DNA from: an uncultured virus (IMG/VR IMGVR_UViG_3300008954_000036)
Lineage: Duplodnaviria; Heunggongvirae; Uroviricota; Caudoviricetes
Strand: one strand, 5' to 3'
Length of the DNA stretch: 20,000 nt
Virus record (IMG/VR): IMGVR_UViG_3300008954_000036
Part shown: one piece after another, positions 1 to 16,772 of the stretch
Position numbering within the stretch: the stretch's first letter is position 1
Layout of the letters: every line of letters begins with the position of its first letter
The notes under the pieces: model-generated
The model's input: only the letters and a program-made list of their open reading frames with translations
Database searches by the model: none
What the model was told of the DNA's origin: nothing
Made by a program: the position numbers and the translations under genes

Positions 1-708
1 CTCAAGGGTAATATGTAGTACATTTCTGAGGTTTAGCCTTGCTTGATGCCCAAGAGCAACCATAGCAGTAGTTTTACATACGTTCGGGTAACTTAGGAAA
101 CAGAAGTACTCTCCTCTCGCTATCCCGCCATCTAAAATACTCTGATCATTCAGCGTAGGGGTAAATGTAGGGCAAACTATCTCCCTGGTCTTAGGGTCTA
201 GTAATATGTGTATATCTTTGGATATCTCTGTAAAGTCTGCCTCTCCTACTTTTCCGATATCAGCCAGCTTTTCCATATCCACCATCATTCGATTGAAGTC
301 TATTTTTCCGCTTTCTTCAAAAGAATCAACATGAGAATTTAGAAATTTAATCCCTTCCATGTGCTGAATAAATGGGATTAGCTTATCTGATACCCAATCA
401 GAATCAGGTAGGTTAGACCACACAGATTTAACTAAAGTGTAAACATCCTGCTTAGCGGCGGCGTTCTTTAAAGCATCCGGTAGATTATTACTGTCGTACA
501 GTGTTTTTATATGTATCCCTATTTCGCTCTTTTTAGGGCAACGTTCATATTTTTTGGCAAAGTCTACTAATACTGCCAATAGTATTTTCTGTGATGCAGA
601 CCTAAAGTATGCCTCATCTAGCACAGAGTAAAAATTAAGTAAAAATTCCCTATTCTGTAGGCATAGAGATAAAACCTGTTTTGCAAAGTTGTTGTTATCA
701 AACAGCAC
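1..708 (-). CDS. Replicative DNA helicase, DnaB/T4 gp41-like (N-terminal 236 codons; runs off the left edge)
   Basis: Hand translation from GTG at 708 (RBS AAGGAG 7 nt upstream) stays open to base 1 and ends ...LDGGIARGEYFCFLSYPNVCKTTAMVALGHQARLNLRNVLHITLE. This matches SF4 helicase H1 (GG..RGE.....xKT) and H1a (V.hhTLE). Confidence 0.85.
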   Translation of the reverse strand, partial: MLFDNNNFAKQVLSLCLQNREFLLNFYSVLDEAYFRSASQKILLAVLVDFAKKYERCPKKSEIGIHIKTLYDSNNLPDALKNAAAKQDVYTLVKSVWSNLPDSDWVSDKLIPFIQHMEGIKFLNSHVDSFEESGKIDFNRMMVDMEKLADIGKVGEADFTEISKDIHILLDPKTREIVCPTFTPTLNDQSILDGGIARGEYFCFLSYPNVCKTTAMVALGHQARLNLRNVLHITLE

Positions 709-1324
709 TTGAATTCTCCTTCTTGTAAAATTTAAGCCAATACCACGTATTAAACGGGTACATAGCTTTTTCGTACTCCTTCATTATTTGTTTTCCTATC
801 TGGAATTGATTAATTACTTTTAACCTTTTAGTAAAATCATCCGGCAAAGAACCCCACACTAAGCATGGGTAGTGTAATGCCTTCCACCAAGAGTATATTA
901 AGGGGTTTGCTTGTATTAGAAGGTACTTATCTTCGTCTTCCCGCATACTGTGATACTTGGTAAAGTATTCTTGAGAGGATTTCTGAATCCTGCTTCTTAT
1001 TTTCTCCAGGTCTAGCCTATTCCCATTTTCTTGATTAAATTTCTCCGGGAAAATGTTTTCTCTATTAAGTAGTATCCTTTTAATGGCAAACTCAAAATCC
1101 CCTCTTATCATTCCCGACGGCTTAAAAACCAAATCATAGTCTTTGCAGTACCATATCCACCATTTTACTAGAGCTTCTATAGGCATTTTGTATTGGTTTT
1201 CCACGTAGCCTAAACAATCCCCTAAAAGTTTTGTTTTAGACTCAGTTAACCCCCATTTTAATTCTTCATCATAGAATTTTAGGTATAGTCTACTGACTAA
1301 TTCTTTTATATCTTCATTGTCCAT
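698..1324 (-). CDS. Hypothetical protein (208 aa), co-transcribed with the helicase
   Basis: Long ORF overlapping the helicase start by 11 nt. No motif recognised. Confidence 0.75.
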   Translation of the reverse strand: MDNEDIKELVSRLYLKFYDEELKWGLTESKTKLLGDCLGYVENQYKMPIEALVKWWIWYCKDYDLVFKPSGMIRGDFEFAIKRILLNRENIFPEKFNQENGNRLDLEKIRSRIQKSSQEYFTKYHSMREDEDKYLLIQANPLIYSWWKALHYPCLVWGSLPDDFTKRLKVINQFQIGKQIMKEYEKAMYPFNTWYWLKFYKKENSSAV

Positions 1325-1423
1325 AAAATCTCTTACTGTTTGGTTTGGTAGGGTACAGGCATCAATAAGAATAAAGTCTGTACCCCTTGAAAAGAAAAAA
1401 GGGTAAAAAAGAAAACTGACCCC

Positions 1424-1452
1424 ATGATGCCCCGGTTTTTACCCGGTGTCAA
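1424..1452 (-). promoter_or_regulatory. Possible leftward promoter (TTGACA-N17-CATCAT)
   Basis: Perfect -35 on the minus strand at 1452-1447 with a weak -10. It points toward the helicase operon. Confidence 0.3.
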
Positions 1453-1501
1453 ATTGGCTATACAAAGCTCAAAGTAAAATACCTGATCCAAGTTTTGAAT
1501 T

Positions 1502-1530
1502 TTGCCGAACTTCTCCCAAATTCATACATT
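1502..1530 (+). promoter_or_regulatory. Possible sigma70-type promoter (TTGCCG-N17-TACATT)
   Basis: Near-consensus hexamers with a 17-nt spacer in the divergent intergenic region. Confidence 0.35.
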
Positions 1531-1562
1531 TTCAAACAATTTTATACGAATATAGAAAAAGA

Positions 1563-1592
1563 TTGACAAACCCAAACAAGTCGAGGTATATT
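1563..1592 (+). promoter_or_regulatory. Sigma70-type promoter for the replication operon (TTGACA-N18-TATATT)
   Basis: Perfect -35 and 5/6 -10, A-rich upstream sequence, 37 nt before the primase ATG. Confidence 0.65.
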
Positions 1593-1629
1593 GAAAATGG
1601 GCCTCTGAATCCGGCCCAGGAGTAAGAGA

Positions 1630-2577
1630 ATGGCCTTAGGCGATAAAAGATTCAAAAGAAAGCAGATTACCTCAAAGTTTTACGGTTTAGTAAATAATAC
1701 CGAACTTAGGTATGACTGCCCAGAATGTACGGACACTAAGGGCCGCTTTTTTCTGAATCGTAATACTCAGAAATTTATCTGCCATAATTGCGGTATCCGT
1801 GGTCAAGTTTCTGAATTCGCTGTTGAGCAGTTTAAGAAAGCGGAAACGGGCGAATTGAAATATGCGGGGATGGCGCTATCGGAAGTAGATGCCTCCGAGT
1901 ATAAGGTTAGGCTTGACCTAGAAGATGATAAAGAAGCTTTTACTAAGTTTATGTCTTCTAGGGGTTTTCAGGATGTAGAACAGTTTCCTGTTATTCCAAT
2001 GTGTAAAAATGTGCAGTACAGAAATAGATTAGCAATTAAGTGTACTTCTATTTTATCTACTAAAGAGTTTTGGAACTTACGGGATATAACAGGTAAGGCG
2101 GATAAGAAAGTATTGTTTCCTAAAACTTGCGCTAATATTGCTAGAAAATCTAATGCTGTTTTATGGAACCCTGCAGTTAATATTAAAGAATTACTTATAA
2201 CTAAGGGCAGTATTATACCTGTAGTAGTAGAGGGGGATATGGCCGCATTATCAGTTTTTAGAAAACTGGGGAATAATTACTACATAGGGTTAGCTGTTTT
2301 TGGTAAGGATATATCTGCTGCACAGGCTAGGTATTTATCTAGTTTTAAAGAAGTTCTTTATATGCCGGATGCAGACACTACAACTAAAGAACAAGAGAAA
2401 GCTATAAATAAACTTATGTTGGGCGGTTGCGAAGAAGTTAAAGTTTACCAAGGCTCACAGTATTTAGATGGTAAAGATGACGCTAACGATATTTTTAAGA
2501 GACAGGGTAACTGGGATTGGTTTAACCCTAGTACGTTTACTAAAAGATCAGTTAGTAAGATAAAACTAAAACTTTGA
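1630..2577 (+). CDS. DNA primase (Zn-finger + Toprim)
   Basis: CPEC...CHNC zinc-binding motif. Toprim VVVEG, FGK, DAD (DxD) and a C-terminal KDDAND motif. RBS AGGAG. Confidence 0.85.
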   Translation: MALGDKRFKRKQITSKFYGLVNNTELRYDCPECTDTKGRFFLNRNTQKFICHNCGIRGQVSEFAVEQFKKAETGELKYAGMALSEVDASEYKVRLDLEDDKEAFTKFMSSRGFQDVEQFPVIPMCKNVQYRNRLAIKCTSILSTKEFWNLRDITGKADKKVLFPKTCANIARKSNAVLWNPAVNIKELLITKGSIIPVVVEGDMAALSVFRKLGNNYYIGLAVFGKDISAAQARYLSSFKEVLYMPDADTTTKEQEKAINKLMLGGCEEVKVYQGSQYLDGKDDANDIFKRQGNWDWFNPSTFTKRSVSKIKLKL

Positions 2578-2640
2578 ATCAGTGTTCAAAGATTAACAGG
2601 TTACAGGCTGACCTACTAAAAGCCTATAAGGAGATTTGAT

Positions 2641-3099
2641 ATGGGAAATATTACTTTTAAAGTAAAAAAGATGGATCAGCTTGAAATTTGTATTGAAGGT
2701 GTTGATACAAACTCTTTAGCTCAGGCACTTGCATATGCGGGTATTCTTAATACAGAAAGTAAAGTGCAAGTTCCGGGCCATGTAAGGGCCTTAGGTAAGG
2801 TCGAAGACTCCGAGGACTTTCTGTCTGAAACAGAAGAAATTGTTAAAGATACGAAAAGCTCTAAAAAAGAGGCAAGTAAAGGTAAGGCAAAGGAAGATCC
2901 TAAAAAGGAGCCTGAGCCTAAGGAAACAAAAGTTGAAGAACCTGAGGAAAGCTTTAAAGATTCTGTTTCATCGGATGATGATTTTGATGATGAGCCTTTT
3001 AAAGATGATGAATCTTTGGGGGATGATTTTGAGAACGATTCAAAGGAGGCTACTGATACGGACGATTTTGAATTTTCAGACGACGATTTCAAGGACTAA
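2641..3099 (+). CDS. Hypothetical protein with Lys/Glu-rich linker and very acidic Asp/Phe C-terminal tail
   Basis: RBS AAGGAG. The tail has repeated DDF units (DDDFDDEPF...DDFEFSDDDFKD). Confidence 0.8.
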   Translation: MGNITFKVKKMDQLEICIEGVDTNSLAQALAYAGILNTESKVQVPGHVRALGKVEDSEDFLSETEEIVKDTKSSKKEASKGKAKEDPKKEPEPKETKVEEPEESFKDSVSSDDDFDDEPFKDDESLGDDFENDSKEATDTDDFEFSDDDFKD

Positions 3100-3124
3100 A
3101 GACCCCATGCTTTAGTTTTTGAAA

Positions 3125-3201
3125 GGCGGGTAGTGAGGCCTTGTTTTCACGTTCTCTAGTGAAACCCTACTTTCACGCTCTCACGGTTTACACTACCCGC
3201 C
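3125..3201 (+). promoter_or_regulatory. Structured leader / inverted repeat upstream of the DNA polymerase
   Basis: GGCGGGTAGTG (3125-3135) is the perfect reverse complement of CACTACCCGCC (3191-3201). Internal TTTCAC/GTGAAA/TTTCAC elements lie between them. Confidence 0.6.
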
Positions 3202-3224
3202 ACTAACTTTTATGGAGGAAGATA

Positions 3225-5435
3225 ATGAGTAAAGAATGTACGAAATGCGAATTACATAGGTATGTAAGTGACGAATATCTGGAACAGTACCATAGGACTA
3301 TTCAGAAAATTAATCATGTAGAAGGGGAAGCTCCTGCTTTGCTGGTAATTATGCCTGCTCCTGATTTTGAACAAGATAGAAGAGTAAAGCAGTTTAGAAA
3401 TCTTATGGACAAACATTATAGGCACTATGATGATACTCAGATTTATTTATTTCACGCTGTTAGCTGTAACTACCCGAAGGGGAAAACTCTAAGTAAAAAG
3501 TGGATCGGTTTGTGTTCAGATAATCTAAAATTCGCAATAGAGGCCATAAAGAAAAAGCATAATGTTCTATCGGCCCTAGCTTGCGGGGTTGACTCTATTG
3601 TAGCGCTTAAGAAACTAGGGTTTGAGTTCTCAGATAAGCATAAGTCTTCAATCATGTATAACCGTAGGGTTAGGCATACTATAAATCCTTATGGTATTCC
3701 TACTTTTTGCGCTAGGACGTTCGATAAGCAGACTGTGGGTTCTTATAACGAAATGGTATGGGCTAGTGATCTAAAGTTTATGTGTGATTCCTTGGAAGGA
3801 AAGGTAAAGAAGCTTTCATATAAGCACCAATTAGTTTTAGGATCAGATCAAATAAAGAAGTTACATAGAGTAATTGAGAGAAAAATAAAGGAAAATGGAG
3901 AAATATGTGTATCAATAGATACAGAAACTAATAAGCTATCTATATACGGCAGAGAGTTAAGATTAAAGCTTCTAACAGTTCAGCTATCCTTCGAGTCCGG
4001 CAGAGCGTTTGTAATTCCTATTCAACATAAAGAGACTCCTAAGTTTGAGGATGATTTGAATATTAAATTCCTGCGCTGGTTTCTAAAGAATCCTAAAATC
4101 AAAAAAATTGCTCATAACGGTATGTACGATTGGAGAGTTTTTAGAAAGTTAGGGTTTCAAATTAATGGGTGGGATTGGGATACCATTCTATTACATCATC
4201 TAGCTTATGCTACTGAACCTCATGCGTTATCATATATAACTAAAGTTTTCACAGACTATGGGGATTACGACTCCGAGCTAGAGCATTATAAGTCAGATAA
4301 TCCAGAGGCAGACCCTGGAAAAGGGGGAACTTACGCTAATGTACCTCTTAAAATACTGGCTAAGTATGGGGCCGGGGATGCGGTAGTTACATACGATTTA
4401 CTGGCTATTTTATTGGATGCTGTGGATGAGCTGGGGTTAAAGGAGTTTTATTTTAATCATGTGCGACGAGCGCAATTAGCTTTTCTGAATATGTCACATA
4501 CGGGGATGAATTTAGATGAGGATAAATTGCGCTCGTATTTTAAGGAATACCAAGAGGAGCTGGATAGGTATTACAGGGAAGAAATATCACAACTACCCAC
4601 AGTAATAGAGTTTGAAAAGAATAATGAAAAGAATAAGGAATACTGGGAGTTTATTAAAGATAGAGACGCATGGTGGAAAGCTAATCCTAGAAAGAAGAAG
4701 CCGCCACAAAAAAAGGAGTTTAACCCTAAAAGTTCGGATCAGTTAGGGGTATTTTTATCAGAGTTTTGTGATTTGCCTGTATTACTTAGGAGTAAAGGAA
4801 AGCAGTTACCTTCCTATAGTAAAGAAGTAAGGGAGCATTTAATGTCCCTGCCTGAGGAGAAAAACGAGTATGGGGTAAGCTTTAGAATAGTCCATATTTT
4901 ACATGACCATCTTCTACAACGTCATGAGTTTAATACCTATATAAAAGGGATGTTAAATTCGGATATTATAGGATTAGATGGACGAATTCACGGTAATTTC
5001 AAGCTATTTGGTGCTGTTACTGGTAGAACTAGCTCTAGTGATCCCAATATGCAGAATATCCCAAGAAAGCCGCTGGTTGAGAAGTTTAATATTAAAGGAC
5101 TGTTCACCGCGCCTAAAGGTAAAAAAATAATACAAGCCGACTACGGGCAAATGGAGCTTAGAGTAGCGGCCTCGGTATCCCAGGATGAGGGTATGCTTAA
5201 AGCTTTTAATGACGGGGTGGATATTCATACTCTTACGGCGGCTAGGTTATATGGAATATCTACAGAAGAAGTGACAGATTTACAAAGGTTTTCAGCCAAG
5301 GCTATTAACTTTGGGCTTATTTACGGCAAGGGGGAGGCTGCCTTAGCAGCCGACTACTACAAAGCGCTAGACGGGGATAAGGAAAAAGCTAAGGAAATGT
5401 ATAGGAAGCTAGAACTGGAGGGCTACGGTGTATAG
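3225..5435 (+). CDS. polA: Family A DNA polymerase, N-terminal part (UDG-like domain, 3'-5' exonuclease, polymerase motifs A and B)
   Basis: Exo I DTET, Exo II HNGMYD, Exo III YGAGD. Also TGRTSSSDPNMQNIP, motif A QADYGQMELRVAA and motif B RFSAKAINFGLIYG. Motif C is absent. RBS GGAGG. Confidence 0.95.
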   Translation: MSKECTKCELHRYVSDEYLEQYHRTIQKINHVEGEAPALLVIMPAPDFEQDRRVKQFRNLMDKHYRHYDDTQIYLFHAVSCNYPKGKTLSKKWIGLCSDNLKFAIEAIKKKHNVLSALACGVDSIVALKKLGFEFSDKHKSSIMYNRRVRHTINPYGIPTFCARTFDKQTVGSYNEMVWASDLKFMCDSLEGKVKKLSYKHQLVLGSDQIKKLHRVIERKIKENGEICVSIDTETNKLSIYGRELRLKLLTVQLSFESGRAFVIPIQHKETPKFEDDLNIKFLRWFLKNPKIKKIAHNGMYDWRVFRKLGFQINGWDWDTILLHHLAYATEPHALSYITKVFTDYGDYDSELEHYKSDNPEADPGKGGTYANVPLKILAKYGAGDAVVTYDLLAILLDAVDELGLKEFYFNHVRRAQLAFLNMSHTGMNLDEDKLRSYFKEYQEELDRYYREEISQLPTVIEFEKNNEKNKEYWEFIKDRDAWWKANPRKKKPPQKKEFNPKSSDQLGVFLSEFCDLPVLLRSKGKQLPSYSKEVREHLMSLPEEKNEYGVSFRIVHILHDHLLQRHEFNTYIKGMLNSDIIGLDGRIHGNFKLFGAVTGRTSSSDPNMQNIPRKPLVEKFNIKGLFTAPKGKKIIQADYGQMELRVAASVSQDEGMLKAFNDGVDIHTLTAARLYGISTEEVTDLQRFSAKAINFGLIYGKGEAALAADYYKALDGDKEKAKEMYRKLELEGYGV

Positions 5436-5844
5436 GGGCATTATAGATTATAGGAATGCAGAGCTGGAAGATCATTGTTTATGTAATGACCTAAACACAA
5501 GGCGGAAGTTTAAGGCTACCCATGAAAGTACGCCATCCGAGATAGTGTGCATTAGGTGTTTTAAAAAGTATTGGTATGTGTATTCTGATTATTTTACAGA
5601 TAAGAAATTCTTGTTCCCTATAAGAGCTTATACAGAACTGGAAAAGGCTATAAGCATTTTAGGGCTGCCCGAATTAGGCGCACCTAGTTCATGGACTGAG
5701 CGCAGGTATAACGAAATTTGTGAGCTTGTTTGTATTGACGAAGGGCATAGATCGGAGTTCTTTAATTTTTTTGATGCTTTTAGGTACGGTGTGCTTGAGC
5801 ATAAGGCAGATTTGGGGGTTATGAATGGCTCGTTTAGACATTGA
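5428..5844 (+). CDS. Unknown Cys-rich protein (138 aa) inserted between the polymerase halves
   Basis: GTG start preceded by GGAGGG at 5417-5422. Contains HCLC...CIRC, a possible Zn site. The ORF spans the whole gap and overlaps both polymerase ORFs. Confidence 0.65.
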   Translation: MYRGIIDYRNAELEDHCLCNDLNTRRKFKATHESTPSEIVCIRCFKKYWYVYSDYFTDKKFLFPIRAYTELEKAISILGLPELGAPSSWTERRYNEICELVCIDEGHRSEFFNFFDAFRYGVLEHKADLGVMNGSFRH

Positions 5845-6340
5845 AAGACCTGAGATTTTTGATAAATTAGCAGGCGCTATGATGAAGAAGTATTTTGCGG
5901 AATTTCCAGGGATTGCGGATTGGATTAAGCATACGCAAAGACAGGCTACCCAGGATCAAGTAACGGTTTCTATTTGGGGTAGGCGGGAAGATTTACCAGA
6001 TATAACTTCTAAACATAGGATGAAGAAAGAGGAGGCCCTTAGGCAGGCTATTAATATGCCTATTCAGTCTGCTGCTAGTGATATCACTTTAGCAGCAGTA
6101 TTTAAGGTGCATGAGTGGATTAATACTGACCCGAAATGTGAAGAAGCGGGATTGGTGATGGTGAATTCGGTTCATGATTCTATCGTATTTGAGTGTAAGG
6201 AGAACTATGTAGAATGGGCATGTAAGAAAATTAAGTTAATCATGGAGGACAAGACAGGATTAGATTGGTTACTGTGTGTTCCTTCTGTAGATTTTGAAGT
6301 TGGAGATAATTACGGGGAGCTGGAAGCTCTCGATATTTAA
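5825..6340 (+). CDS. polA: Family A DNA polymerase, C-terminal part (contains motif C)
   Basis: YFAEFPGI, WGRR, RQAINMPIQSAASDI, motif C VHDSIVFE and terminal VGDNYG. GGGGG lies 6 nt before the ATG, and an in-frame TGA sits immediately upstream at 5822-5824. Confidence 0.95.
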   Translation: MARLDIERPEIFDKLAGAMMKKYFAEFPGIADWIKHTQRQATQDQVTVSIWGRREDLPDITSKHRMKKEEALRQAINMPIQSAASDITLAAVFKVHEWINTDPKCEEAGLVMVNSVHDSIVFECKENYVEWACKKIKLIMEDKTGLDWLLCVPSVDFEVGDNYGELEALDI

Positions 6341-6351
6341 GGAGAAATATT

Positions 6352-7161
6352 ATGGCTTTAAATAGAGCTAATTTTAAGGGTAGAAAAAAGCTGAGCGATA
6401 AGTACCAAAAGAGTAAAGGGTATGGCCTGGAGTTTAGACCAGAAAAGGACGTTGAATATCAGATAGCTATTATTCCTTTGATGGATATGGAAGGTAATAC
6501 TTTCCCTAATCCAGATGCCGATTTGGTGGATACTGTTAGAGTTCATCAACAAGTAGGAAAAGATAAAAAGCAATCTGTTCTATGTGCTTCTTCTTTTGGC
6601 GCTAGGTGTCAGGTTTGTGAAATTGCTAAAGGGAGGATAACTACCAGGGCTGTTCATACAGTAGTTCTGCTTAAGGAGAGGAAAACTGAGGCAGGTAGTA
6701 AGTTTATTCCAGTTAGTTTACCTATGTCTTTTAATTGCCCTCTTCAAGAACTTGGGGATGGTTACATTGACTGTATTATGAATGAGGATTTTCCTGCTAA
6801 TGATGATATCCGTAAACTTGCGATATTTAAGTATTTTGTGACCGGGGAAAAGATTGATACAGAACATAAACTTACAATCCGCCCCTCCGGTTTTATTTTT
6901 GATGTTGCTACTCTTAGGCGGATAAGGAAGGATGATAATGGGAAAGTAGTCTATGATCCACAAGCCGATAAGGATGAGCTAGTTTTTAAAACTAAGACCG
7001 AGCTAATGACTGAGCTTTCGTTGCCAGCAGTAGAGAGATTAAGTTGTCCGTATGAAAATCAGCAACTCGCAGCCGCTCGCGGGTTTGATGCTTATGAGAA
7101 GAAAGACAAGCTAGAAAGAATTCTTAGGAAGAATGAAATTATAGGAGGAGAAAATGAGTAA
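6352..7161 (+). CDS. Single-stranded DNA-binding protein, T4 gp32-like (putative)
   Basis: H...C...CxxC pattern (VHQQ...VLCASSFGARCQVCE) like the gp32 Zn site. Directly downstream of pol. RBS AAGGAG. Confidence 0.6.
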   Translation: MALNRANFKGRKKLSDKYQKSKGYGLEFRPEKDVEYQIAIIPLMDMEGNTFPNPDADLVDTVRVHQQVGKDKKQSVLCASSFGARCQVCEIAKGRITTRAVHTVVLLKERKTEAGSKFIPVSLPMSFNCPLQELGDGYIDCIMNEDFPANDDIRKLAIFKYFVTGEKIDTEHKLTIRPSGFIFDVATLRRIRKDDNGKVVYDPQADKDELVFKTKTELMTELSLPAVERLSCPYENQQLAAARGFDAYEKKDKLERILRKNEIIGGENE

Positions 7162-7444
7162 AGTAAAAAGTTTAAGTTTTGCGCTAGGTATGACTATAGC
7201 ATTGCCTAACTATGAGAATATCAAATTGGATGTTAGCGTGGATATTGATACAGACGTAACAAGCAAGGAAGATATTACAAAAGCATGTAACAAAGCTAAG
7301 AAGATTTTGTTCGCTCAGTTAGAAGAATGCTCAGACAAAAAATTTACAGCTAAGGTTAACGGGCTTAAGCACGAAGCCAGAGAGCTATGGGTTGATACTA
7401 TGAAGGAACAAACCCAGAAGCACCTTAAGCGTTTAGGTAAATGA
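7154..7444 (+). CDS. Hypothetical phage protein (96 aa)
   Basis: RBS AGGAG, overlaps both neighbours. The segment TIALPNYENIKLDV resembles small phage replication-region proteins. Confidence 0.75.
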   Translation: MSKVKSLSFALGMTIALPNYENIKLDVSVDIDTDVTSKEDITKACNKAKKILFAQLEECSDKKFTAKVNGLKHEARELWVDTMKEQTQKHLKRLGK

Positions 7445-8487
7445 AGCCCTATTCTACAAAAGTAAAGGGCGAGGAATATGCAGGCGGAAAAGTTTGCAAA
7501 AATACTCGCCCTACGCTTGCTTTAATCGACGGTAATAATTGGTGTATACGTGCTTATTTTACCAGCCAGAAACCCGATGAAGGAGATATAGACTTACGCA
7601 CACAGGCTTTTGTAATGATTAGTAAATTTCTAAGCACCTACGAGGTTGATGCTTTGGTATTCACCTTTGACGGGGGCCGGGAATGGAGAACGAAACTTAT
7701 AGAAACTGGAGATTGGCGTACTAAGTCTGGGAAGAAAGGCTATAAAGGCACTAGAACCTTCCACGATGATAGGGAGTATGCGGTTATAAAGGCAAGCATA
7801 AAACAGTTTGCTCATGATCTCCCTATAAGATTAGGTATACCAGTATTGATGCTAGATACGGTAGAGGCTGATGATGTTATTTTCACGGCTACTAAAATGC
7901 TACGAGGCGTTAATAAGCTGGTTGTATCTACAGATGAGGATTTGGTATTAGCCTGTTTAAACCCTAATACCTACTGGTATTCCCCTTTAAAGGGGATTGT
8001 AGTAAGTAAGCACACATATCCTGATTATAACTACGGTATGCCTTTAAAAGCTTACTCTACCTTAAAGGCTATAGTAGGAGATACTTCGGATAACATAGAG
8101 GGGGTTGCAGGCATTGGAGAACAGACCCTATTTACTTGGGCTAAAAAATCTGGGGTATACCCTTGGAAGTTTTTTGATTGGGTAGATAGGTTTGGGACAA
8201 TTAACCAAAAGAAGAAGTATTTGATCGACCCAGGATTTAGAAAGAATTTTCAATTAGCTTTAAAGGCTATTGATTTGAGATTGTATGAAGGTCAAAATTA
8301 CTCAGAGTTGGGCTTGCTTAGTGATTTATTAGCTATTAAGCCTTTGGATAGGGTAGAGGTTAAAAAGTTTTGTAAGGAAATTAATTTGGACGTAAAAATA
8401 CTATCGCAGATGCACAGACTTATATCTTCGATAGAAAGTAATCAAAGAGGGTTACAAAGGATGGGTAGGATATGGAAAAATCTGTAA
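7441..8487 (+). CDS. 5'-3' exonuclease / flap endonuclease (T4 RNase H / PolI N-terminal-like)
   Basis: LIDGNN, FDGG..WR, YKGTR, EADDVI, STDEDL and the H3TH motif GDTSDNIEGVAGIGEQT. Confidence 0.92.
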   Translation: MKPYSTKVKGEEYAGGKVCKNTRPTLALIDGNNWCIRAYFTSQKPDEGDIDLRTQAFVMISKFLSTYEVDALVFTFDGGREWRTKLIETGDWRTKSGKKGYKGTRTFHDDREYAVIKASIKQFAHDLPIRLGIPVLMLDTVEADDVIFTATKMLRGVNKLVVSTDEDLVLACLNPNTYWYSPLKGIVVSKHTYPDYNYGMPLKAYSTLKAIVGDTSDNIEGVAGIGEQTLFTWAKKSGVYPWKFFDWVDRFGTINQKKKYLIDPGFRKNFQLALKAIDLRLYEGQNYSELGLLSDLLAIKPLDRVEVKKFCKEINLDVKILSQMHRLISSIESNQRGLQRMGRIWKNL

Positions 8488-9821
8488 TTTTTAGGTTATA
8501 TGCTTTATTTAATAGCATTAAGCAAGAATCATCAAGAAATGCTAAGGCGGATATCTTTGAGGCTTTTATGGCTTTAGAGATAGACAAAGGAACATGGGCT
8601 GGAGATTTACAGTGGCTTTATATGATGTTTTGCGGTGAGTCCACTTTTGGAGTGAGTAAACTGCCAGATTATGAAACTATACCCTTTACAGATGGGGTGT
8701 TTAAAGATGAGGAAATGTGGAATTTATTGCGTAAGCTAGAAGAAAGGAGATTGACAGGGGATAATGCTAAGAACGCTATTATAGAGTTACTTACTGGCTC
8801 AGATTGTCGGTCCTACGATGTTTTGCATTGGATTGTGAATAAAGACCCGAAAGCAGGGTTTTCTATCAAGTCTATAAATAAGCAGTTAGCTGAGCCTATT
8901 CCTACTTTTGAAAACCACAAAGCTGAGAAAGTCTTCGATATAGGGGAAGACGGGAAGACGGTTATTTTGTGGGATAAGTTACCGGACTTACCCAACTACC
9001 TAGTAACTGTAAAGTATGATGGCAGGAGAACTTATATTGTTATTCCTAAGGAAGGTGCTGAGTTTGCGTATGCCTTGTCTTCTAAGGGGTTTGAAGTACC
9101 CGCTGTAAAGAATTTATGTGTGAAAATAGCAGAACATTTAGATCGTCCTGGCATAGTGTTAGATGGGGAATTCTTTTATAAGGATTTAAACGAGACACAA
9201 AGCATTATGAGCAAGGATGAGGACCAAGGCACTGAGACAGGGCTTAAGTTCTACTGTATAGGTGCTTTATCTATGAGTGAATGGAAAACAAGTGCCAGGA
9301 CTTCCTTGAAAGTGCAGTTAGGAACTATGAGGAATAGAGCAAAGAAGCTGATAGGAGATTCTACTAAGTACCTAACTATGACTAGTGGCAGAATGGTGGC
9401 CGGTAAAGACAAAACAAAAATTCAGCATTTAATGGACTTGGCTGTGCGTAAGGGGTTCGAGGGGCTAGTAATTCTAAACCCGGAAGAGGTTTACAGCAGA
9501 TTTAAAGAAAACCGTAAGGGTATGTGGAAGGCGAAGTATGTAGATGAGTATGATGCTACGATTGTGGATTTTGAAGAAGGTACCGGTAAGCTGAAAGGTA
9601 GACTAGGGGCTTTTATTGTTGAGTTTAACGGTGTTAGGTCTAATGTGGGGGGATCGTTAAAGATAAACAAAGTATCTACACTAGGCGAAGCCGAGCGATT
9701 ACAGTTTTGGACACAAAAAACTGAGCTAGTAGATAAAGTTATCCGTGTTCGTTCCTACGGAATAACGGCTGATGGCTGTTTTAGGCACGCCGGTTTTGTC
9801 GGTTTTCATGAAGGGAAATAA
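8472..9821 (+). CDS. ATP-dependent DNA ligase
   Basis: Motif I KYDGRR, III LDGE, IV EGLVI, V WKAK, and OB-fold GTGKLKGRLGA. Confidence 0.92.
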   Translation: MEKSVIFRLYALFNSIKQESSRNAKADIFEAFMALEIDKGTWAGDLQWLYMMFCGESTFGVSKLPDYETIPFTDGVFKDEEMWNLLRKLEERRLTGDNAKNAIIELLTGSDCRSYDVLHWIVNKDPKAGFSIKSINKQLAEPIPTFENHKAEKVFDIGEDGKTVILWDKLPDLPNYLVTVKYDGRRTYIVIPKEGAEFAYALSSKGFEVPAVKNLCVKIAEHLDRPGIVLDGEFFYKDLNETQSIMSKDEDQGTETGLKFYCIGALSMSEWKTSARTSLKVQLGTMRNRAKKLIGDSTKYLTMTSGRMVAGKDKTKIQHLMDLAVRKGFEGLVILNPEEVYSRFKENRKGMWKAKYVDEYDATIVDFEEGTGKLKGRLGAFIVEFNGVRSNVGGSLKINKVSTLGEAERLQFWTQKTELVDKVIRVRSYGITADGCFRHAGFVGFHEGK

Positions 9822-9823
9822 CA

Positions 9824-10399
9824 ATGAGTAGAAAAGTAAATTTCTCAGATGTAGGTTCTGAGTTCACGCATAAAGCGGCAATGTTTGATAATTCCTTGCC
9901 TTTAACAGAGTGGGTAAACGCACTACTAAAGTACGGCGTAGTCCCTGGGCCAACGACGGACTTAATATGTACTTTACCTTATTTGTCTGGGCTAACTTCC
10001 TTGGCAGCCACAAACAAGGATACAGTAGGGGAAAGTAAGATTTTGTTATCTATGTCTCACTTGCTGTTCCCAGGGTATAAGCCTATAGCTTGTATGTACA
10101 AAGGGAATATCTCTGATAACGTAGGGGTATGGAAAGTAAAACACCACGAACCTATAGGGCCAGCCTTTAATGAGTTGGCAGAGTTTAGGAGAGAAAGCGC
10201 TAATAAAAATCTTGATATTATTCTGCTAGACAGTATTAAATTTTGTACGTTTTCCCTGTTCAAAGTATTTGATGATACTGAGGATACAAAAGGGCTAATG
10301 AATATAATTCATAAGGGTTTTGAGTTTAATACGGCCAGGTTTAGTTACTATATAGAGGAAGAGGCTTTTAGCCCATCTATGTTAGGTGAGGGGTGTTAG
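9824..10399 (+). CDS. Hypothetical protein (191 aa)
   Basis: ORF packed tightly between the ligase and the nuclease. No motif recognised. Confidence 0.7.
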   Translation: MSRKVNFSDVGSEFTHKAAMFDNSLPLTEWVNALLKYGVVPGPTTDLICTLPYLSGLTSLAATNKDTVGESKILLSMSHLLFPGYKPIACMYKGNISDNVGVWKVKHHEPIGPAFNELAEFRRESANKNLDIILLDSIKFCTFSLFKVFDDTEDTKGLMNIIHKGFEFNTARFSYYIEEEAFSPSMLGEGC

Positions 10400-10401
10400 T
10401 T

Positions 10402-11391
10402 ATGTCTTGCTTAGTAGTAGGAGATTTACACTTAGATACTTACCCTAGTTTTGGAGTTAACTGTGACGGGTTCCCTAAGCGTTTGGATGATATGTCAAAA
10501 GCGCTGAACTTTTACCTTGAGCAAGCCCGTGAAGACGGGCATAGCTATATAGTCTTCACAGGGGATATTTTTGATAGTAGATTTAGCATTCATGCCCTGG
10601 CTTTAGTAGTTTGGGGTAATTTTTTAGATTGTGCCGCTATTGATGGTATTAAGATCATAGTGTGTGAAGGTAATCATGATCAGTTTGATGATTTCATAAG
10701 CTCACTACAGGCTTTTAAGTCTAATATTGTTTTGGTTTCTAGCGTTGAGTGCCTAGAGTTGGCAGACGGTACGATATTGGGCGTGATCCCTTATTCTAAA
10801 AGCACAGAAACTCTTATAGAAAATATACAAACTGTTAAAGACTGCGACTTAGTAGTAGGGCATTTTGGCATGGGGGATGTAGAGCTACAGAAAGGGTTTT
10901 GCGAAAAGGATAAGCCTATAGCAGAAGATTTATCGGAAGTTAAGGGTCATGTAATTTTAGGACATTACCACAATTACCACGAAGTAACAGACAGGATCAG
11001 GTTTATTGGTACTCCTTTGGGTATAACATTTGCGGAAGCTAATCAGAAAAAGTACATAGCTGCCTTTGATTTGGCTTCTGGGGTAGAGCTTATAAGCACA
11101 GACCACTTTCCGCAGCTTAGAGAGCTAGGCCCGGAACAAGCTAAGACTATAGGTAAGATGAATGATAATCATTATTACAAAGTTTGGCATACTTCCGACA
11201 CTAAACCTCCAAAGAATAAAAAAATAGTACGTACTGTAATGGTGAAAGCAAACGTCGCAAAGAGAATTCAAAACATAGGAAAGAAAACAAAAACGCAGCT
11301 AGTAGGAGAATTCATTAGTAATAAAGAGGATTTACCTTTTAAGAATACCTTATTCAATATGTGTAAAGCTATAGTCACAGAAGCTGCTTAA
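10402..11391 (+). CDS. SbcD/Mre11-like (T4 gp47-like) metallophosphoesterase nuclease
   Basis: GDLH, GDIFD, GNHD and GHYH motifs. Adjacent to an SbcC-like gene. ATG 10402 is preferred over GTG 10393 because GAGGGG lies 8 nt upstream. Confidence 0.9.
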   Translation: MSCLVVGDLHLDTYPSFGVNCDGFPKRLDDMSKALNFYLEQAREDGHSYIVFTGDIFDSRFSIHALALVVWGNFLDCAAIDGIKIIVCEGNHDQFDDFISSLQAFKSNIVLVSSVECLELADGTILGVIPYSKSTETLIENIQTVKDCDLVVGHFGMGDVELQKGFCEKDKPIAEDLSEVKGHVILGHYHNYHEVTDRIRFIGTPLGITFAEANQKKYIAAFDLASGVELISTDHFPQLRELGPEQAKTIGKMNDNHYYKVWHTSDTKPPKNKKIVRTVMVKANVAKRIQNIGKKTKTQLVGEFISNKEDLPFKNTLFNMCKAIVTEAA

Positions 11392-11412
11392 AACGGCTTT
11401 TTAGGAGAAAAA

Positions 11413-13230
11413 ATGATATTAAATATAAGTCATATCTATGCCAAAAATTTTCTTAGTTATGATGAGCTTTCCTATGATTTTCAGGAAGGGACTACGATCA
11501 TACTAGGGGAAAATCGGGATGAAATGAAGTCTAACGGAGCGGGTAAAACAGCAATATTTGAAGCTGTATACTATGGATTATATGGTGCGCTGATGTTTAC
11601 CAAGGATCGTCCTACCAAGACCGGAAAAAAGCAGATGGAGCTTAGGTTAAAGCTGTCTGCTGATGACCAAGAAGTAGAGGTAAGGAGATTTATTAACGGG
11701 GCGGCAAGCCCTAGTCTTCAAGTTTATATAGACTGTAAAGACGCTAGCCGGGGAACTACTACGTTATCTCAGGAGCTTCTACAGGATATTATTAAAGTAT
11801 CCCCTACTGTGTTTCTTAATACGGTTATTTTTGGGGGTAAAGCTTCTTCTTTCGCTTATGGGACTGATGCTACACAAAAGCCTATATTAAACAAGATTCT
11901 TGGGCTGGATGACTGGGAAATTTACCAAGATAAAGCTAAAAAAATAAGAACAAACCACCTGTATAAAAGACAGGAGCTTATAGGGCAAAGAGGCAGCGCA
12001 GAGCAGAGAATTAAACTTTTAGAGGGGGATATAGAAAACTATAAAGAGGACTATGTAAAAGCTGTCGGGGATGTGCCGGTTGATAAATTTGATGAGCGGT
12101 TCACGTCCTTAAAAGAAGAGTACGACCGTGAACGTAAAAGACTGGTAAAAATGGAAGCAAAAGTATCCGAGGAGTCTGTTAGAAACGAGGTAGCAGAAAC
12201 TAACAAAACTACACTAAGCCACTTCAAAGGAGTCCTTAAAGAAGAGCTGTCTCGATGTGAGTTGCTGTCTAAAGAAATCCACGAACTGAATAAAGGCAAG
12301 GCCAAGGCTCAGAGCGGGGTATGCCCTACGTGTGGGCAGACAGTAAAGGATTCCGGCAAGATGGATTCTTACTTGAAAAAATTAGCAGCCAAGGTAGACA
12401 TATTCCAGAAAACAGAGAAAAGGAAAGATGAAAGCAGCAGAAAAGTAGCCGACCTGGAAAGTAGTTTAGATGGTTATGACTTTGGGAAGTTTATTAGTAT
12501 GCAGGCAGCATTAGATAAGCAAAGAAAAAGAGTATCCATATTATCTAATACAGTAAATGATAGGATCGCAGCCAAGGCAGAACATGATATTAAAGTTGCG
12601 GAAGCTAATCAAAGAGTGAAAGAAATAAATAGAGCCATAGATAAGGCACGTAAAGATAAAAAAGCAGAAGAGTTATCTATACAAGAGATTGGCCGTAAAA
12701 TGTCTTATCAAGACAAGATGCTTACTTGCTGTGATAACGCAATAGAAATGTTTAGTAGGCAGGGCATACAGTCTCAGCTAATCGGAGATTTTGAGGAAGT
12801 TTTAAATCTTGGGATTGGAAAGTATTTTTCTGCTTTTAATTTCAAAAGTGTAAAACTGTCATTAAGCACACAGAAGAAAAATAGAAATGGGGAATTCAGA
12901 GATAAGATTGATTTGAAATTAGTGAATAAAGACGGTAAGAAGAGGTCTTTTAGCTCTTTCTCCCCTGGTGAGTGTAAAAGGATAGAGCTGGCTATATTCC
13001 TTGCTTTAAGAGAGGCGGGTGAGGCGGAGGTAGAAATAAACCTAATGCTTATAGATGAGGCCTTGGATAAAGGGGATGAGGACTTACTTTTTAGTCTTAT
13101 GGAGATTATTGATGATCATTTCCCCTATAAATGGAAGTATTTAACATCCCCTAGACTGGTTCAGGGTATGGTATTTAGTAGATCAATAACAGCCGTAAAA
13201 AGTAAAGGGATTTCTAGGTTAGTAGAATGA
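11413..13230 (+). CDS. SbcC/Rad50-like (T4 gp46-like) SMC ATPase
   Basis: KNFLSY, Walker A NGAGKT, coiled coils around a CPTC zinc hook, signature FSPGE and Walker B LIDE. Confidence 0.92.
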   Translation: MILNISHIYAKNFLSYDELSYDFQEGTTIILGENRDEMKSNGAGKTAIFEAVYYGLYGALMFTKDRPTKTGKKQMELRLKLSADDQEVEVRRFINGAASPSLQVYIDCKDASRGTTTLSQELLQDIIKVSPTVFLNTVIFGGKASSFAYGTDATQKPILNKILGLDDWEIYQDKAKKIRTNHLYKRQELIGQRGSAEQRIKLLEGDIENYKEDYVKAVGDVPVDKFDERFTSLKEEYDRERKRLVKMEAKVSEESVRNEVAETNKTTLSHFKGVLKEELSRCELLSKEIHELNKGKAKAQSGVCPTCGQTVKDSGKMDSYLKKLAAKVDIFQKTEKRKDESSRKVADLESSLDGYDFGKFISMQAALDKQRKRVSILSNTVNDRIAAKAEHDIKVAEANQRVKEINRAIDKARKDKKAEELSIQEIGRKMSYQDKMLTCCDNAIEMFSRQGIQSQLIGDFEEVLNLGIGKYFSAFNFKSVKLSLSTQKKNRNGEFRDKIDLKLVNKDGKKRSFSSFSPGECKRIELAIFLALREAGEAEVEINLMLIDEALDKGDEDLLFSLMEIIDDHFPYKWKYLTSPRLVQGMVFSRSITAVKSKGISRLVE

Positions 13231-13472
13231 AAATACATAAATCATGCAAGCGCTCTTTATTTAAAATTTTCTCTGCTTTTGATTTTGTGGGCGAAGGTTT
13301 AACAAGAAGGGAAATAGTGCAAAGAGCGGGGGTGGCTACTACTACCTTTTCAAAAAATGTATTTAAGCTTTCTATGCTCGGTATTATAGAAAGCTCCGGC
13401 GCAAGGCCTGTGGTTTACAGAACGATAGCAAATGAGGATTATTTTAGAAAGGTGGTTAAATTTTATGAGTAA
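13227..13472 (+). CDS. Small winged helix-turn-helix protein (putative)
   Basis: GLTRREIVQRAGVATTTFSKNVFKLSMLGII...VVY pattern. ATGA overlap with sbcC. Confidence 0.6.
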   Translation: MKIHKSCKRSLFKIFSAFDFVGEGLTRREIVQRAGVATTTFSKNVFKLSMLGIIESSGARPVVYRTIANEDYFRKVVKFYE

Positions 13473-13635
13473 GGTAAAGATATGCAGAAGGCAAAACCAA
13501 AGAAGAGAAGTAGATAGAGCTTCTACTATGATAGAGCCTGGAAAATTATTCAATGCCGGGGAAGTTACTTTCATTGCTTTATTATGTTTCGGTATTGGCA
13601 TATTCTTAGGATATTGCAGGAGTTTTTATTTCTAA
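13465..13635 (+). CDS. Small membrane protein with one C-terminal hydrophobic segment
   Basis: ATG 13465 follows AAAGGTGG. Hydrophobic stretch FIALLCFGIGIFLGY. The stop overlaps the next ATG. Confidence 0.5.
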   Translation: MSKVKICRRQNQRREVDRASTMIEPGKLFNAGEVTFIALLCFGIGIFLGYCRSFYF

Positions 13636-14078
13636 TGACTAAAAATACTTATTTAATTTTCGTGAAATCCAAGTCTATAAAAGGCTGGCTTATTAGGTTA
13701 GTAACAGGAGAGGATATAGACCATGTAGCTATATATAGCCCTAGAACTAAGACAGTTTACGAAATGGTAGATGGGGGTTTAGAGGGGGTTTTGATGGTTG
13801 GTTATAGGCCAACTATTATCGGGCAGGTTGAGCTATTGTGCTGGGACGTAGTTAGTGATTGGTTAGTGACAAATAGCAAAGTCAAGTATGACTGGGGGCG
13901 CACTATTCTCTGGCCCTTCCGTAAGCTATTTACAGCAGATGACCCTTTTAAGCTTAATTGTGTAGAAATGGGGGAAAGCTTGCCCAAGGCGCACAGGTAT
14001 GAGCCAGAGACAGAGCAAAACAGAAGCCCAGGGAAACTATATAAAAGTTTAACTAATGGGCATTGGAAGATTACATGA
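13635..14078 (+). CDS. Permuted papain-like (NlpC/P60 superfamily, YiiX/YebB-like) amidase/peptidase
   Basis: IRLVT....DHVAI (His), KYDW and NCVE (Cys) occur in permuted His-before-Cys order. A TAATG overlap supports the start at 13635. Confidence 0.65.
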   Translation: MTKNTYLIFVKSKSIKGWLIRLVTGEDIDHVAIYSPRTKTVYEMVDGGLEGVLMVGYRPTIIGQVELLCWDVVSDWLVTNSKVKYDWGRTILWPFRKLFTADDPFKLNCVEMGESLPKAHRYEPETEQNRSPGKLYKSLTNGHWKIT

Positions 14079-14284
14079 GAAAAGATAAAAAACCTGCTAA
14101 AGACAAGGTTATAAAGCATTTAAGCTTAGTTAATCCTTTGAATACGAGCCAGCTTATGAGGCTTACTGGGTTAAGTAAGCCATCGGTAAATCAAGCCATA
14201 AGAGAGCTAGAAAAAGAAAGCAGGATAAGAATATCAGAAGCGCTTAGGAATAGAGTTTACACTTTAAAGGAGGAGAATGCATGA
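14075..14284 (+). CDS. Small winged helix-turn-helix protein (putative)
   Basis: LNTSQLMRLTGLSKPSVNQAIRELEKESRI pattern. ATGA overlaps at both ends. Confidence 0.65.
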   Translation: MRKDKKPAKDKVIKHLSLVNPLNTSQLMRLTGLSKPSVNQAIRELEKESRIRISEALRNRVYTLKEENA

Positions 14285-15171
14285 GATTAAGAAGTCCTAT
14301 ACTCTGGTTTGGAGGCAAGGGTAATTTCAGAAAAAAAACTTACCCCTACTTGCCCAAAACAAAGTCGTATGTAGAACCGTTCGGAGGGGGTGCTTCTGTT
14401 TTGATGGGCAGAGAGCCGTCAGAAATCGAAACTTATAATGACCTGGACGGGGCCGTGTATGACCTTTTTACGGTCTTGGCAGACCCAGAACTTTTTGAAC
14501 AATTTTATCGCAGGGTTAGTGCGCTCCCGTATTCCAGGCGACTCTTTCTCGAATGTAGAGAGGGCTGGCAGGCCGAGCCAGACAGAATCAAGCGCGTTTC
14601 GATGTGGTATGTGGTGGCTCGACAGGCGTTTAGTGGGGACCTTGGGTCTGGTTGGGGCTTTGTCTGTACTTCCTCAAGGCGTGGCATGGCCGCCCACGTC
14701 AGCAAATGGCTTACGGCGATTGACAACCTTCCTGAAATCCACAAAAGGCTCTCAAGGGTGCAGATAGAAAACTCAGATTTCAGAAACATTTTTCAGAATT
14801 ATGATACTCAGGACACGCTTTTTTATTGTGATCCCCCTTACGTACTGGGAACTAGAAAAAAGGGGGGATACTCATGCGAAATGAGCGACCAAGACCACGC
14901 TGATTTAGTTGACTGTCTGCTCGGCTTGTCTGGGATGGCTGTACTGAGCGGATACAACAGCGGAGTGTACGACGCACTAGAGCAAAACGGATGGATAAGA
15001 AAAGATTTTGAAACCGCTTGCTACGCCGCAGGTCGAACAAAAGCATCGGGCCTTCAAGGTAGGGGCGCGGCACTGGAAAAACAAGCAAGGGTCGAAAGTC
15101 TTTGGATATGCCCGAAAACTCAAAAACGGCTACAGATGCCCATGCAGATGCCGCTGTTCAAGGTTGGGTAG
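14281..15171 (+). CDS. Dam-family (D12 class) DNA adenine methyltransferase
   Basis: WFGGK, SAM-binding YVEPFGGG, YNDLD and catalytic YCDPPY. RBS AAGGAGGAG. Confidence 0.92.
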   Translation: MRLRSPILWFGGKGNFRKKTYPYLPKTKSYVEPFGGGASVLMGREPSEIETYNDLDGAVYDLFTVLADPELFEQFYRRVSALPYSRRLFLECREGWQAEPDRIKRVSMWYVVARQAFSGDLGSGWGFVCTSSRRGMAAHVSKWLTAIDNLPEIHKRLSRVQIENSDFRNIFQNYDTQDTLFYCDPPYVLGTRKKGGYSCEMSDQDHADLVDCLLGLSGMAVLSGYNSGVYDALEQNGWIRKDFETACYAAGRTKASGLQGRGAALEKQARVESLWICPKTQKRLQMPMQMPLFKVG

Positions 15172-15222
15172 CCGGTATGTTTTTTAACTTAGGGGGATCG
15201 CGTAATTGGAAAGGAATTAAAA

Positions 15223-15959: not shown

Positions 15960-15970
15960 CAGGAGGAAAA

Positions 15971-16739: not shown

Positions 16740-16772
16740 GGAGCTTATGAGTAAGCTTTTTAAAGGTGGGCT

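Follow-up and report, generated by a model that had tools for sequence, protein, structure and literature searches.

Replication-related phage genes that are interrupted by free-standing ORFs have been described several times. The examples covered in PMC2988022 include mobE in nrdA of Aeromonas phage Aeh1, mobA in gene 39/60 of T4, and a seg gene at gene 43, and the free-standing endonuclease ORFs discussed there overlap the upstream ORF by 11 to 24 bp. Gene 43 of the Aeromonas phages 25 and 44RR is likewise in two parts, separated in one of these phages by a seg gene and in the other by a spacer that is not translated; the two halves co-purify and are active (PMC2988022). Among marine phages, the OM43 phages MEP401 and MEP402 carry a family A polymerase that is divided over two ORFs. 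Between these lies the small ORF14, which belongs to no known family and which the authors of PMC10580990 could not name. The "fractured genes" described by Dassa et al. 2009 (PMC2677866) are marine-metagenome replication enzymes, mostly of phage, that are broken by a free-standing gene.

We analyzed a 20,000-nucleotide stretch of DNA (the window) in which the family A DNA polymerase of a marine phage is present as two separate ORFs with a 138-amino acid ORF, ORF138, in between (Table 1). The locus is a variant of the known "genes-in-pieces" arrangement, from which it departs in having an insert that cannot be recognized as a nuclease gene. It resembles nrdA-a/mobE/nrdA-b of Aeh1 (Friedrich et al. 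2007, as cited in PMC2988022), where a free-standing ORF, packed tightly on the upstream cistron, divides an essential replication-related gene into two cistrons that are translated separately, splicing is not involved, and reassembly preserves function. However, mobE of Aeh1 encodes an HNH homing endonuclease whose activity has been demonstrated, and the split enzyme has been shown to work, as reported in PMC2988022, whereas the insert described here matches no nuclease family. The Aeromonas 43A/43B genes likewise provide a replicative polymerase from two genes with intervening DNA, but this is a family B polymerase, and the DNA described in PMC2988022 as lying between the genes is either a seg-type (GIY-YIG) gene or an untranslated spacer. 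The marine fractured genes share with our locus the replication enzyme that is broken by a free-standing gene. In the cases presented in PMC2677866, the insert is an endonuclease and split-intein halves re-ligate the protein, whereas the extensions at the break in our polymerase are only 27 and 13 amino acids long and have no intein features. MEP401 and MEP402, as they are characterized in PMC10580990, share with our phage the marine habitat, the divided family A polymerase and the small intervening ORF of no known family.

Table 1. Features of the split polymerase locus (positions in the window)
Feature	Position	Strand	Remarks
DNA polymerase A, N-terminal half	3225..5435	+	736 aa; stop TAG at 5433-5435
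Imperfect 20-nt direct repeat	5400-5419 and 5449-5468	+	16/20 identical; brackets the N-half stop and the ORF138 start
GGAGGG Shine-Dalgarno motif	5417..5422	+	within the last codons of the polymerase N-half
ORF138, orphan	5428..5844	+	N-terminal four-cysteine CxC...CxxC segment, zinc-ribbon-like; predicted C-terminal helical domain (about 42-125)
Putative zinc-binding knuckle pair	5476..5559	+	codons C17-L-C19 ... C41-I-R-C44, then conserved FKK[YF]W
GGGGG Shine-Dalgarno-like motif	5814..5818	+	from sequence; inside ORF138
DNA polymerase A, C-terminal half	5825..6340	+	171 aa; ATG start

The N-terminal half of the polymerase (N-half) consists of an N-terminal extension, a 3'-5' exonuclease domain, the thumb, and palm and fingers, and matches the Pfam families DNA_pol_A_exo1 (E 2.1e-15) and DNA_pol_A (E 2.4e-49). 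The C-terminal half (C-half) opens with a 13-amino acid head, continues from helix P onwards, and matches DNA_pol_A (E 8.1e-33). Because the two matches occupy positions 27-242 and 232-381 of the 381-position DNA_pol_A profile, the polymerase is truly cut in two and nothing essential has been lost. Each half is an intact ORF with a translation start of its own, and between them they carry every catalytic motif: the N-half has A (DYGQMELR) and B (RFSAKAINFGLIYG), and the C-half has C (VHDS). In phmmer alignments to the contiguous Klenow chain, the N-half aligns as far as chain residue 452, leaving its last 27 amino acids as an unaligned tail, and the C-half aligns from chain residue 459; we take these residues, by our own offset, to be about 776 and 783 of Pol I. 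Just 6 Klenow residues are therefore unaligned between the halves, and the polymerase is interrupted in the fingers loop, immediately after motif B. The tail might have been a degenerate duplicate of the polymerase stretch with which the C-half opens, but BLASTP found nothing and a small HMM of the region scored the tail no better than 99 of 2000 shuffles, and this idea was rejected as unsupported.

ORF138 starts with GTG. The preliminary description of this DNA placed it correctly, with 138 amino acids, and the claimed overlaps of 8 nucleotides with the N-half (5428-5435) and 20 nucleotides with the C-half (5825-5844) are exact. N-half, ORF138 and C-half occupy three different reading frames. 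ORF138 was also said to have its own ribosome-binding site and to supply that of the C-half from within its coding sequence, and we find both: the GGAGGG motif ends 5 nucleotides before the GTG, and the GGGGG motif 6 nucleotides before the C-half ATG. Among ORFs of at least 80 amino acids in this phage (n = 62), 36 have GGAG, GAGG, AGGA or GGGG 4 to 16 nucleotides upstream of the start, versus 15% of random positions, so Shine-Dalgarno motifs are really used in this phage. Motifs of the GGGGG type also occur in the sequences upstream of other genes of the phage.

ORF138 is a real gene, according to its codon score, its GGAGGG site and a distant homologue, P0013, that has all four cysteines. 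Its frame has the best codon score of the six (0.086 versus -0.28 or lower), slightly under the scores of its neighbors (0.2 to 0.43), and its GC content is that of the flanks, which leaves no compositional mark of recent arrival. Two of the four near-identical database copies are called as an 88-amino acid protein that starts at V51; the 138-amino acid form is supported because P0013 keeps the cysteines upstream of this position. The HCLC and CIRC motifs mentioned in the preliminary description are present at residues 16-19 and 41-44, and their cysteine pattern suggests that the segment is a putative zinc-ribbon that could bind metal. An AF2 model based on a two-sequence alignment is helical over residues 42-125, but it is poor (mean pLDDT 55, and below 50 in the cysteine segment), and the description of domains that it suggests is a weak one. 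When this poor model was compared with 48,161 PDB chains by VIA-align, the best Z was 4.4, and a Foldseek comparison with BFVD, a check proposed in advance, gave 0 matches at E<=0.001; with a model of this quality, both comparisons carry little information. An ESM Atlas feature search returned zinc-ribbon clusters at 0.81-0.83, which is the chance level, and nothing at or above 0.85 was found in two ESM Atlas searches.

The family to which ORF138 belongs is met just twice among 1.84 billion representative proteins: a phmmer search at E<=0.001 detected ORF138 itself and P0013 (33% identity, E 7.2e-9). Their alignment (A1) has 41 invariant columns, including C17, C19, C41 and C44. FKK[YF]W and FDAFR are also invariant, and the CxC and CxxC pairs, 21 to 26 residues apart, are kept in both proteins. 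The ESM Atlas model of P0013 has a pLDDT of 0.47. A word-indexed search of 5.8 billion proteins returned the cluster of ORF138 alone, to which A1 added P0013 alone, and a PDB sequence search with A1 gave a single chance match (E 0.85). No match to ORF138 was found by tblastn among GenBank phages at E<=1, no relatives were found in IMG/VR with ORF138 or with P0013, and none were found in genome contigs with A1 or with P0013. A metagenome scan found none with A1 and one locus, L003, with P0013.

L003 is one of 10 contigs on record that carry P0013, and is the one on which our view of its context rests. It corresponds to a bacterial island, in which P0013 is flanked by a 99-amino acid ORF and a tyrosine integrase; further along are an m5C methylase, a type II restriction enzyme, Vsr, a caspase-like peptidase, MerR and LytTR. 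No polymerase is present in L003. The most likely reading of these sequences is that the ORF138 family is tiny and moves between genomes, being found here and beside an integrase in a bacterial island, where "mobile" refers to two contexts of a two-member family.

The explanation that we favor, with somewhat better than even confidence, is a gene in pieces in which ORF138 is a foreign free-standing gene in the fingers loop of the polymerase, and the polymerase is made as two polypeptides. The place of insertion would be a surface loop of the fingers subdomain, approximately six Klenow residues after the segment of the O-helix and motif B. N-half, ORF138 and C-half would most likely be translated from a single mRNA through re-initiation at both junctions, and the polymerase halves would then reassemble non-covalently, perhaps aided by the 27-amino acid tail and the 13-amino acid head. 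ORF138, with its putative zinc-ribbon and small helical domain, is probably a nucleic-acid- or protein-binding accessory gene that is dispensable to the polymerase. A non-splicing insert that leaves its host gene working as two cistrons had been proposed beforehand, and this proposal is supported by the three frames and the lack of an intron signal, by the start and Shine-Dalgarno-like motif that each half possesses, by the unbroken gene of relatives, and by the mobile context of P0013.

ORF138 might instead be an active homing or self-mobilizing nuclease of an unrecognized family, which cut an insert-free polymerase gene at the fingers loop and was copied in. We consider this unlikely, although free-standing endonuclease genes are classically found within conserved, essential phage replication genes, as ORF138 is, and P0013 occupies another mobile context. 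Also, the putative CxC...CxxC zinc knuckle resembles zinc fingers with which some homing endonucleases bind DNA. Nevertheless, the HNH, GIY-YIG and LAGLIDADG signatures that the preliminary description did not see are likewise absent from a Pfam scan of ORF138, which gave zero families at E<=0.1. NCBIfam and PADLOC gave nothing at the same threshold, and PHROG gave a chance-level match alone (phrog_4864, of unknown function; E 0.051 over 18 residues), so that no clear match to an intron-encoded endonuclease appears in these four collections. Profiles of HNH (PF01844), HNH_5 (PF14279) and Endonuclease_7 (PF02945) have no match at E<=10 in the whole 61-kb record from which the window comes. In the two sequences of A1 there is no invariant histidine, and the ORF138 model, at low confidence, is all-helical beyond residue 42 and lacks the beta elements of common nuclease folds. 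Homologues inside other essential genes had been suggested as something to look for; P0013, the sole homologue, is not inside a gene.

A bolder proposal, which we regard as improbable, is that ORF138 and P0013 are the founding members of a novel class of self-mobilizing genes that land in essential genes of phages and in bacterial islands, with the host gene surviving as two coupled cistrons. The product would be a zinc-ribbon/helical protein of ~140 amino acids with none of the known homing-nuclease folds, and translation signals would be rebuilt on landing, perhaps via the junction duplication at 5400-5468.

It is similarly improbable, in our estimate, that ORF138 is a co-opted accessory or assembly factor of the polymerase that binds both halves and without which the enzyme would not be active or processive, with tight translational packing setting the stoichiometry. 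ORF138 sits exactly at the break, and the overlapping stops and starts on both sides fit proteins that are made together. However, its sole homologue occurs in a bacterial island that has no polymerase in the vicinity, which makes such a role less likely, and because of this context ORF138 appears to be a wandering accessory gene rather than a polymerase subunit.

We give slightly less credence to a history in which the polymerase had been split beforehand, and ORF138 is a later passenger in a short intercistronic gap and not the cause of the break. An earlier split was raised for gene 43 of Aeromonas phages 25 and 44RR in PMC2988022, and the MEP401-type marine phages of PMC10580990 have a family A polymerase that is split elsewhere, with an unrelated ORF. 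In MEP401 (record OP830906) the break is at Pfam positions of about 132/154, between motifs A and B, whereas here it is at 242/232, after motif B. ORF14 of MEP401, with 77 amino acids, lacks any cysteine motif and shows no relationship to ORF138 (BLASTP E 4.2). An earlier split and the gene in pieces that we favor share the same view of how the locus works at present.

Distant relatives, L005 and L007, have a single polymerase ORF across the site (813 and 821 amino acids), and therefore the split is derived. The N-half matches the L007 polymerase by BLASTP with 29% identity over 448 amino acids (E 4e-36), and the match reaches N-half residue 724. No close relative was found among GenBank phages (best polymerase identity <37%) or in IMG/VR (best loci at about 29-41%), and with the relatives at hand either order of split and insertion would fit. 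One further protein, P0018, was considered as a C-half split at the same loop, but its relatives L005 and L007 are unbroken, and it is therefore either a fragment or a gene called from an internal start.

Phage genes for family A polymerases often contain group I introns that carry ORFs, an annotated case being gene 31 of SPO1. It is very improbable, however, that ORF138 lies in a self-splicing intron or in another element through which a single polymerase chain would be regained at the RNA or protein level. An Rfam scan of 4800-6500 at E<=1 found no intron family (the sole match is a minus-strand miRNA model, E 0.29), the RNA of 5340-5870 folds with a z of +0.67 (76 of 100 shuffles fold at least equally well), ORF138 fills the Klenow-unaligned stretch except for ~75 nucleotides upstream and ~20 downstream, stop, start and Shine-Dalgarno-like motif are present for each half separately, and the use of three frames excludes an intein. 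The tail and head are also too short for split-intein halves, with no Cys/Ser opening the tail and no HN plus Cys/Ser/Thr in the head. The SPO1 intron is not at the same site, since it sits upstream of motif A.

Split replication genes indicate how much cutting an essential enzyme tolerates, and how a phage genome can take up selfish or passenger genes and remain viable. In the loop that follows the O-helix, a family A polymerase has a natural permissive split site, which could interest engineers of split polymerases. If ORF138 drove its own insertion, it would represent a new type of mobile gene; otherwise, together with the MEP401 phages, it indicates that marine polymerase-splitting inserts are not always endonuclease genes.

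The locus has an identical sequence in four of four sequencing runs from two studies, and one contig of 1708 nucleotides covers 5037-6744 with 0 differences. At the low depth of these runs, their contigs contain no joint that skips ORF138 and no insert-free allele. A 23-nucleotide similarity between 5197-5219 (polymerase LKAFNDGV) and 5771-5793 (ORF138 FDAFRYGV) is attributed to chance, because FDAFR is native to the ORF138 family and is also found in P0013. The direct repeat at 5400-5468 reads as YRKLELE when translated in the frame of the polymerase and as YRNAELE in that of ORF138, and is of a close-range type of which the 20-kb window holds just two; it may be a junction duplication, with a significance that was assessed post hoc.

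ORF138, a cysteine-rich ORF, lies between two ORFs that correspond to the N-terminal and C-terminal parts of a family A DNA polymerase (N-half and C-half), and each of these three cistrons is in a different frame. The N-half and ORF138 overlap by 8 nt, and ORF138 and the C-half by 20 nt. Ribosome-binding-site (RBS) motifs like those preceding ORF138 and the C-half occur 4-16 nt upstream of 36 of the 62 phage ORFs of at least 80 aa, compared with 15% of random positions. All elements of the preliminary description of ORF138 (coordinates, overlaps, RBS motifs, and the HCLC and CIRC motifs at residues 16-19 and 41-44) proved correct on re-reading the sequence, which is part of a 61.1-kb IMG/VR virus record classed as linear (CheckV completeness 70) and differs from it by a single base, at 15731. 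We lean slightly toward one reading as the most likely: a small, foreign zinc-ribbon gene would occupy a break, derived in origin, in the polymerase's fingers loop, ribosomes would translate the N-half, ORF138 and the C-half one after another on a single mRNA, and the separately made polymerase halves would reassemble.

Features of the split polymerase locus, the remainder of the window, and the metagenome contig (L003) that carries P0013, the single distant homologue of ORF138
Feature	Location	Coordinates	Strand	Remarks
Polymerase N-half	window	3225..5435	+	736 aa; ORF call
ORF138	window	5428..5844	+	138 aa, GTG start; ORF call
Polymerase C-half	window	5825..6340	+	171 aa, ATG start; ORF call
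GGAGGG	window	5417-5422	+	5 nt 5' of ORF138 GTG
GGGGG	window	5814-5818	+	6 nt 5' of C-half ATG
Imperfect 20-nt direct repeat	window	5400-5419 and 5449-5468		16/20 identical; brackets N-half stop and ORF138 start
DnaB-like helicase, primase, flap exonuclease, ATP-dependent ligase	window			other module genes
SbcD/SbcC, Dam-type methylase, dNMP kinase, PDDEXK resolvase	window			other module genes
99-aa ORF of no family	L003	138-437		before P0013
Genes following P0013	L003	984-8846		bacterial island
Tyrosine integrase	L003			after P0013, opposite strand
m5C methyltransferase, type II restriction enzyme, Vsr	L003			after P0013
Caspase-like peptidase with GAF protein	L003			after P0013
MerR and LytTR regulators	L003			after P0013

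The N-half matches Pfam profile DNA_pol_A_exo1 and positions 27-242 of the 381 positions of DNA_pol_A, and the C-half matches positions 232-381 of the latter; PHROGs assignments of both halves agree. The N-half contains motifs A and B, and the C-half contains motif C (VHDS). When aligned to the Klenow fragment, the N-half match stops at chain residue 452, where the motif B segment (...AINFGLIYG...LA) ends, and the C-half match begins at residue 459, leaving unaligned between them only six Klenow residues, the fingers loop after the O-helix. By our own offset from the printed alignment, the break corresponds to approximately Pol I 776 to 783. An N-half tail of 27 aa and a C-half head of 13 aa have no Klenow alignment. 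In two distantly related IMG/VR loci, L005 and L007, the polymerase is one ORF across this site (813 and 821 aa, respectively), which makes the split the derived state. BLASTP aligns the N-half to the L007 polymerase with 29% identity over 448 aa (E 4e-36), reaching N-half residue 724.

The stretch is present in five marine or seawater metagenome runs from two studies. Contigs from four runs are identical to the window wherever they overlap it, and one of 1708 nt covers 5037-6744, including both junctions, with zero differences. No contig from these four runs skips ORF138.

ORF138 is a genuine gene, and its family is almost unique: when 1.84 billion representatives were searched exhaustively with phmmer (E<=0.001), the two proteins recovered were ORF138 itself and P0013, which is 139 aa long and 33% identical (E 7.2e-9). 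Their pairwise alignment has 41 invariant columns; C17, C19, C41 and C44 are invariant, as are FKK-x-W after the second cysteine pair and FDAFR near the C-terminus. We found no match to ORF138 in Pfam, NCBIfam or PADLOC (E<=0.1), one chance-level match in PHROG (E 0.051), and none by tblastn among 50,697 GenBank phage records (E<=1). The codon score of its frame (0.086) is the best of six, the others being -0.28 or lower, and is somewhat below that of neighbouring genes (0.2-0.43); its GC content equals that of its flanks. Two of the four near-identical members of its 90%-identity cluster are annotated as 88 aa, from V51 (window 5581, an internal GTG or ATG), and these calls leave out the cysteine motifs, indicating that automatic annotation under-calls ORF138. 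Apart from that at 5428, the open frame has no start codon 5' of the first cysteine, and the conserved columns, including the four cysteines, support this predicted start and the 138-aa form.

The surroundings of P0013 bear on the proposal that ORF138 is a co-opted accessory factor. P0013 was recovered from one metagenome contig, in a bacterial island of the mobile or defence type, and no polymerase gene is found around it there. This polymerase-free context makes it less likely that the ORF138 family is a polymerase component. Because the phage polymerase and L003 are unrelated, mobile-looking contexts, we regard the family as a wandering accessory gene.

Nuclease activity of ORF138 finds no support in the sequence or the structural model, and the indications for a homing nuclease are all negative; a nuclease of some new fold is a less likely reading. 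The HNH, HNH_5 and Endonuclease_7 profiles have no match in the whole 61-kb record (E<=10). The two-sequence alignment with P0013 has no invariant histidine, and the 20-kb window has no recognizable homing endonuclease gene. An AF2 model built on this alignment is of low quality (mean pLDDT 55, and below 50 for residues 1-39), with helices at 42-62, 65-78, 91-101 and 110-123 (pLDDT 60-77). Comparison of this model with 48,161 PDB chains gave no Z above 4.4, BFVD gave 0 matches (E<=0.001), and all matches in two Atlas searches were below 0.85. ORF138 is best described as a predicted four-cysteine, zinc-ribbon-like head with a small helical domain, a pattern from which we infer a putative role in nucleic-acid or protein binding.

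The locus contains no intron, intein or split intein, which supports the non-splicing insert of the preliminary description: the three different frames exclude an in-frame intein, the N-half tail and C-half head fall well short of the length of split-intein halves and have no junction nucleophiles, the single Rfam match in 4800-6500 (E<=1) is to a minus-strand miRNA model (E 0.29), and the RNA structure of 5340-5870 has a z of +0.67, with 76 of 100 shuffles folding equally well or better. There is also no enrichment of promoter-like or terminator-like sites.

Translated in the polymerase frame, the direct repeat at the 5' junction reads YRKLELE; in the ORF138 frame it reads YRNAELE. The 49-nt spacing of its copies matches the +1 frame offset. 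Only two close-range repeats of this type occur in the 20-kb window. The GGAGGG of ORF138 falls within the upstream copy, so the junction may stem from a small duplication of ORF138 5' codons; in this post hoc reading, the duplicated codons may have built the present tail, stop, RBS and start. A further idea, in which the N-half tail derives from a degenerate duplicate of the polymerase segment opening the C-half, failed its tests.

The arrangement is of the same kind as the T4-type "genes in pieces". Among the examples set out in PMC2988022, mobE splits nrdA in Aeh1, mobA separates T4 genes 60 and 39, and gene 43 is split by a seg gene or by an untranslated spacer; the pieces reassemble in such cases, and a free-standing endonuclease ORF shares 11-24 bp with the ORF upstream of it. 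The "fractured genes" of marine metagenomes (PMC2677866) have split inteins in addition, unlike the ORF138 locus. The nearest parallel is in the OM43 phages MEP401 and MEP402, where a small ORF that the authors left unassigned splits a family A polymerase (PMC10580990). However, the break in the MEP401 polymerase (OP830906, 6111-8221) separates motif A from motif B (Pfam positions ~132/154), whereas here it follows motif B, and MEP401 ORF14 is a 77-aa protein without cysteines, unrelated to ORF138. The MEP401 split is an independent event at another site. The SPO1 intron is positioned upstream of motif A. The novelty lies in where the polymerase is broken, after motif B, and in an insert from an orphan family of predicted zinc-ribbon proteins; the kind of arrangement was already known.

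Elsewhere the window (1-20000) carries the genes of a standard module for replication and recombination. Directly 3' of the C-half, this module includes a 269-aa ORF (6352-7161) with a C-x8-C-x2-C stretch and no match in Pfam, PHROG or NCBIfam. Between the primase and polymerase genes, 2641-3099 encodes an extremely acidic, low-complexity protein of 152 aa with D, E and F runs and no family match; the second close-range 20-nt repeat is inside this gene, at 2968. The polymerase N-half begins with an N-terminal extension of ~200 aa (window 3225-3850) that has no Pfam match. A similar extension is present in the unbroken polymerases of L005 and L007, and that of L007 contains a GEAPG-type motif of the sort that family 4 uracil-DNA glycosylases carry.
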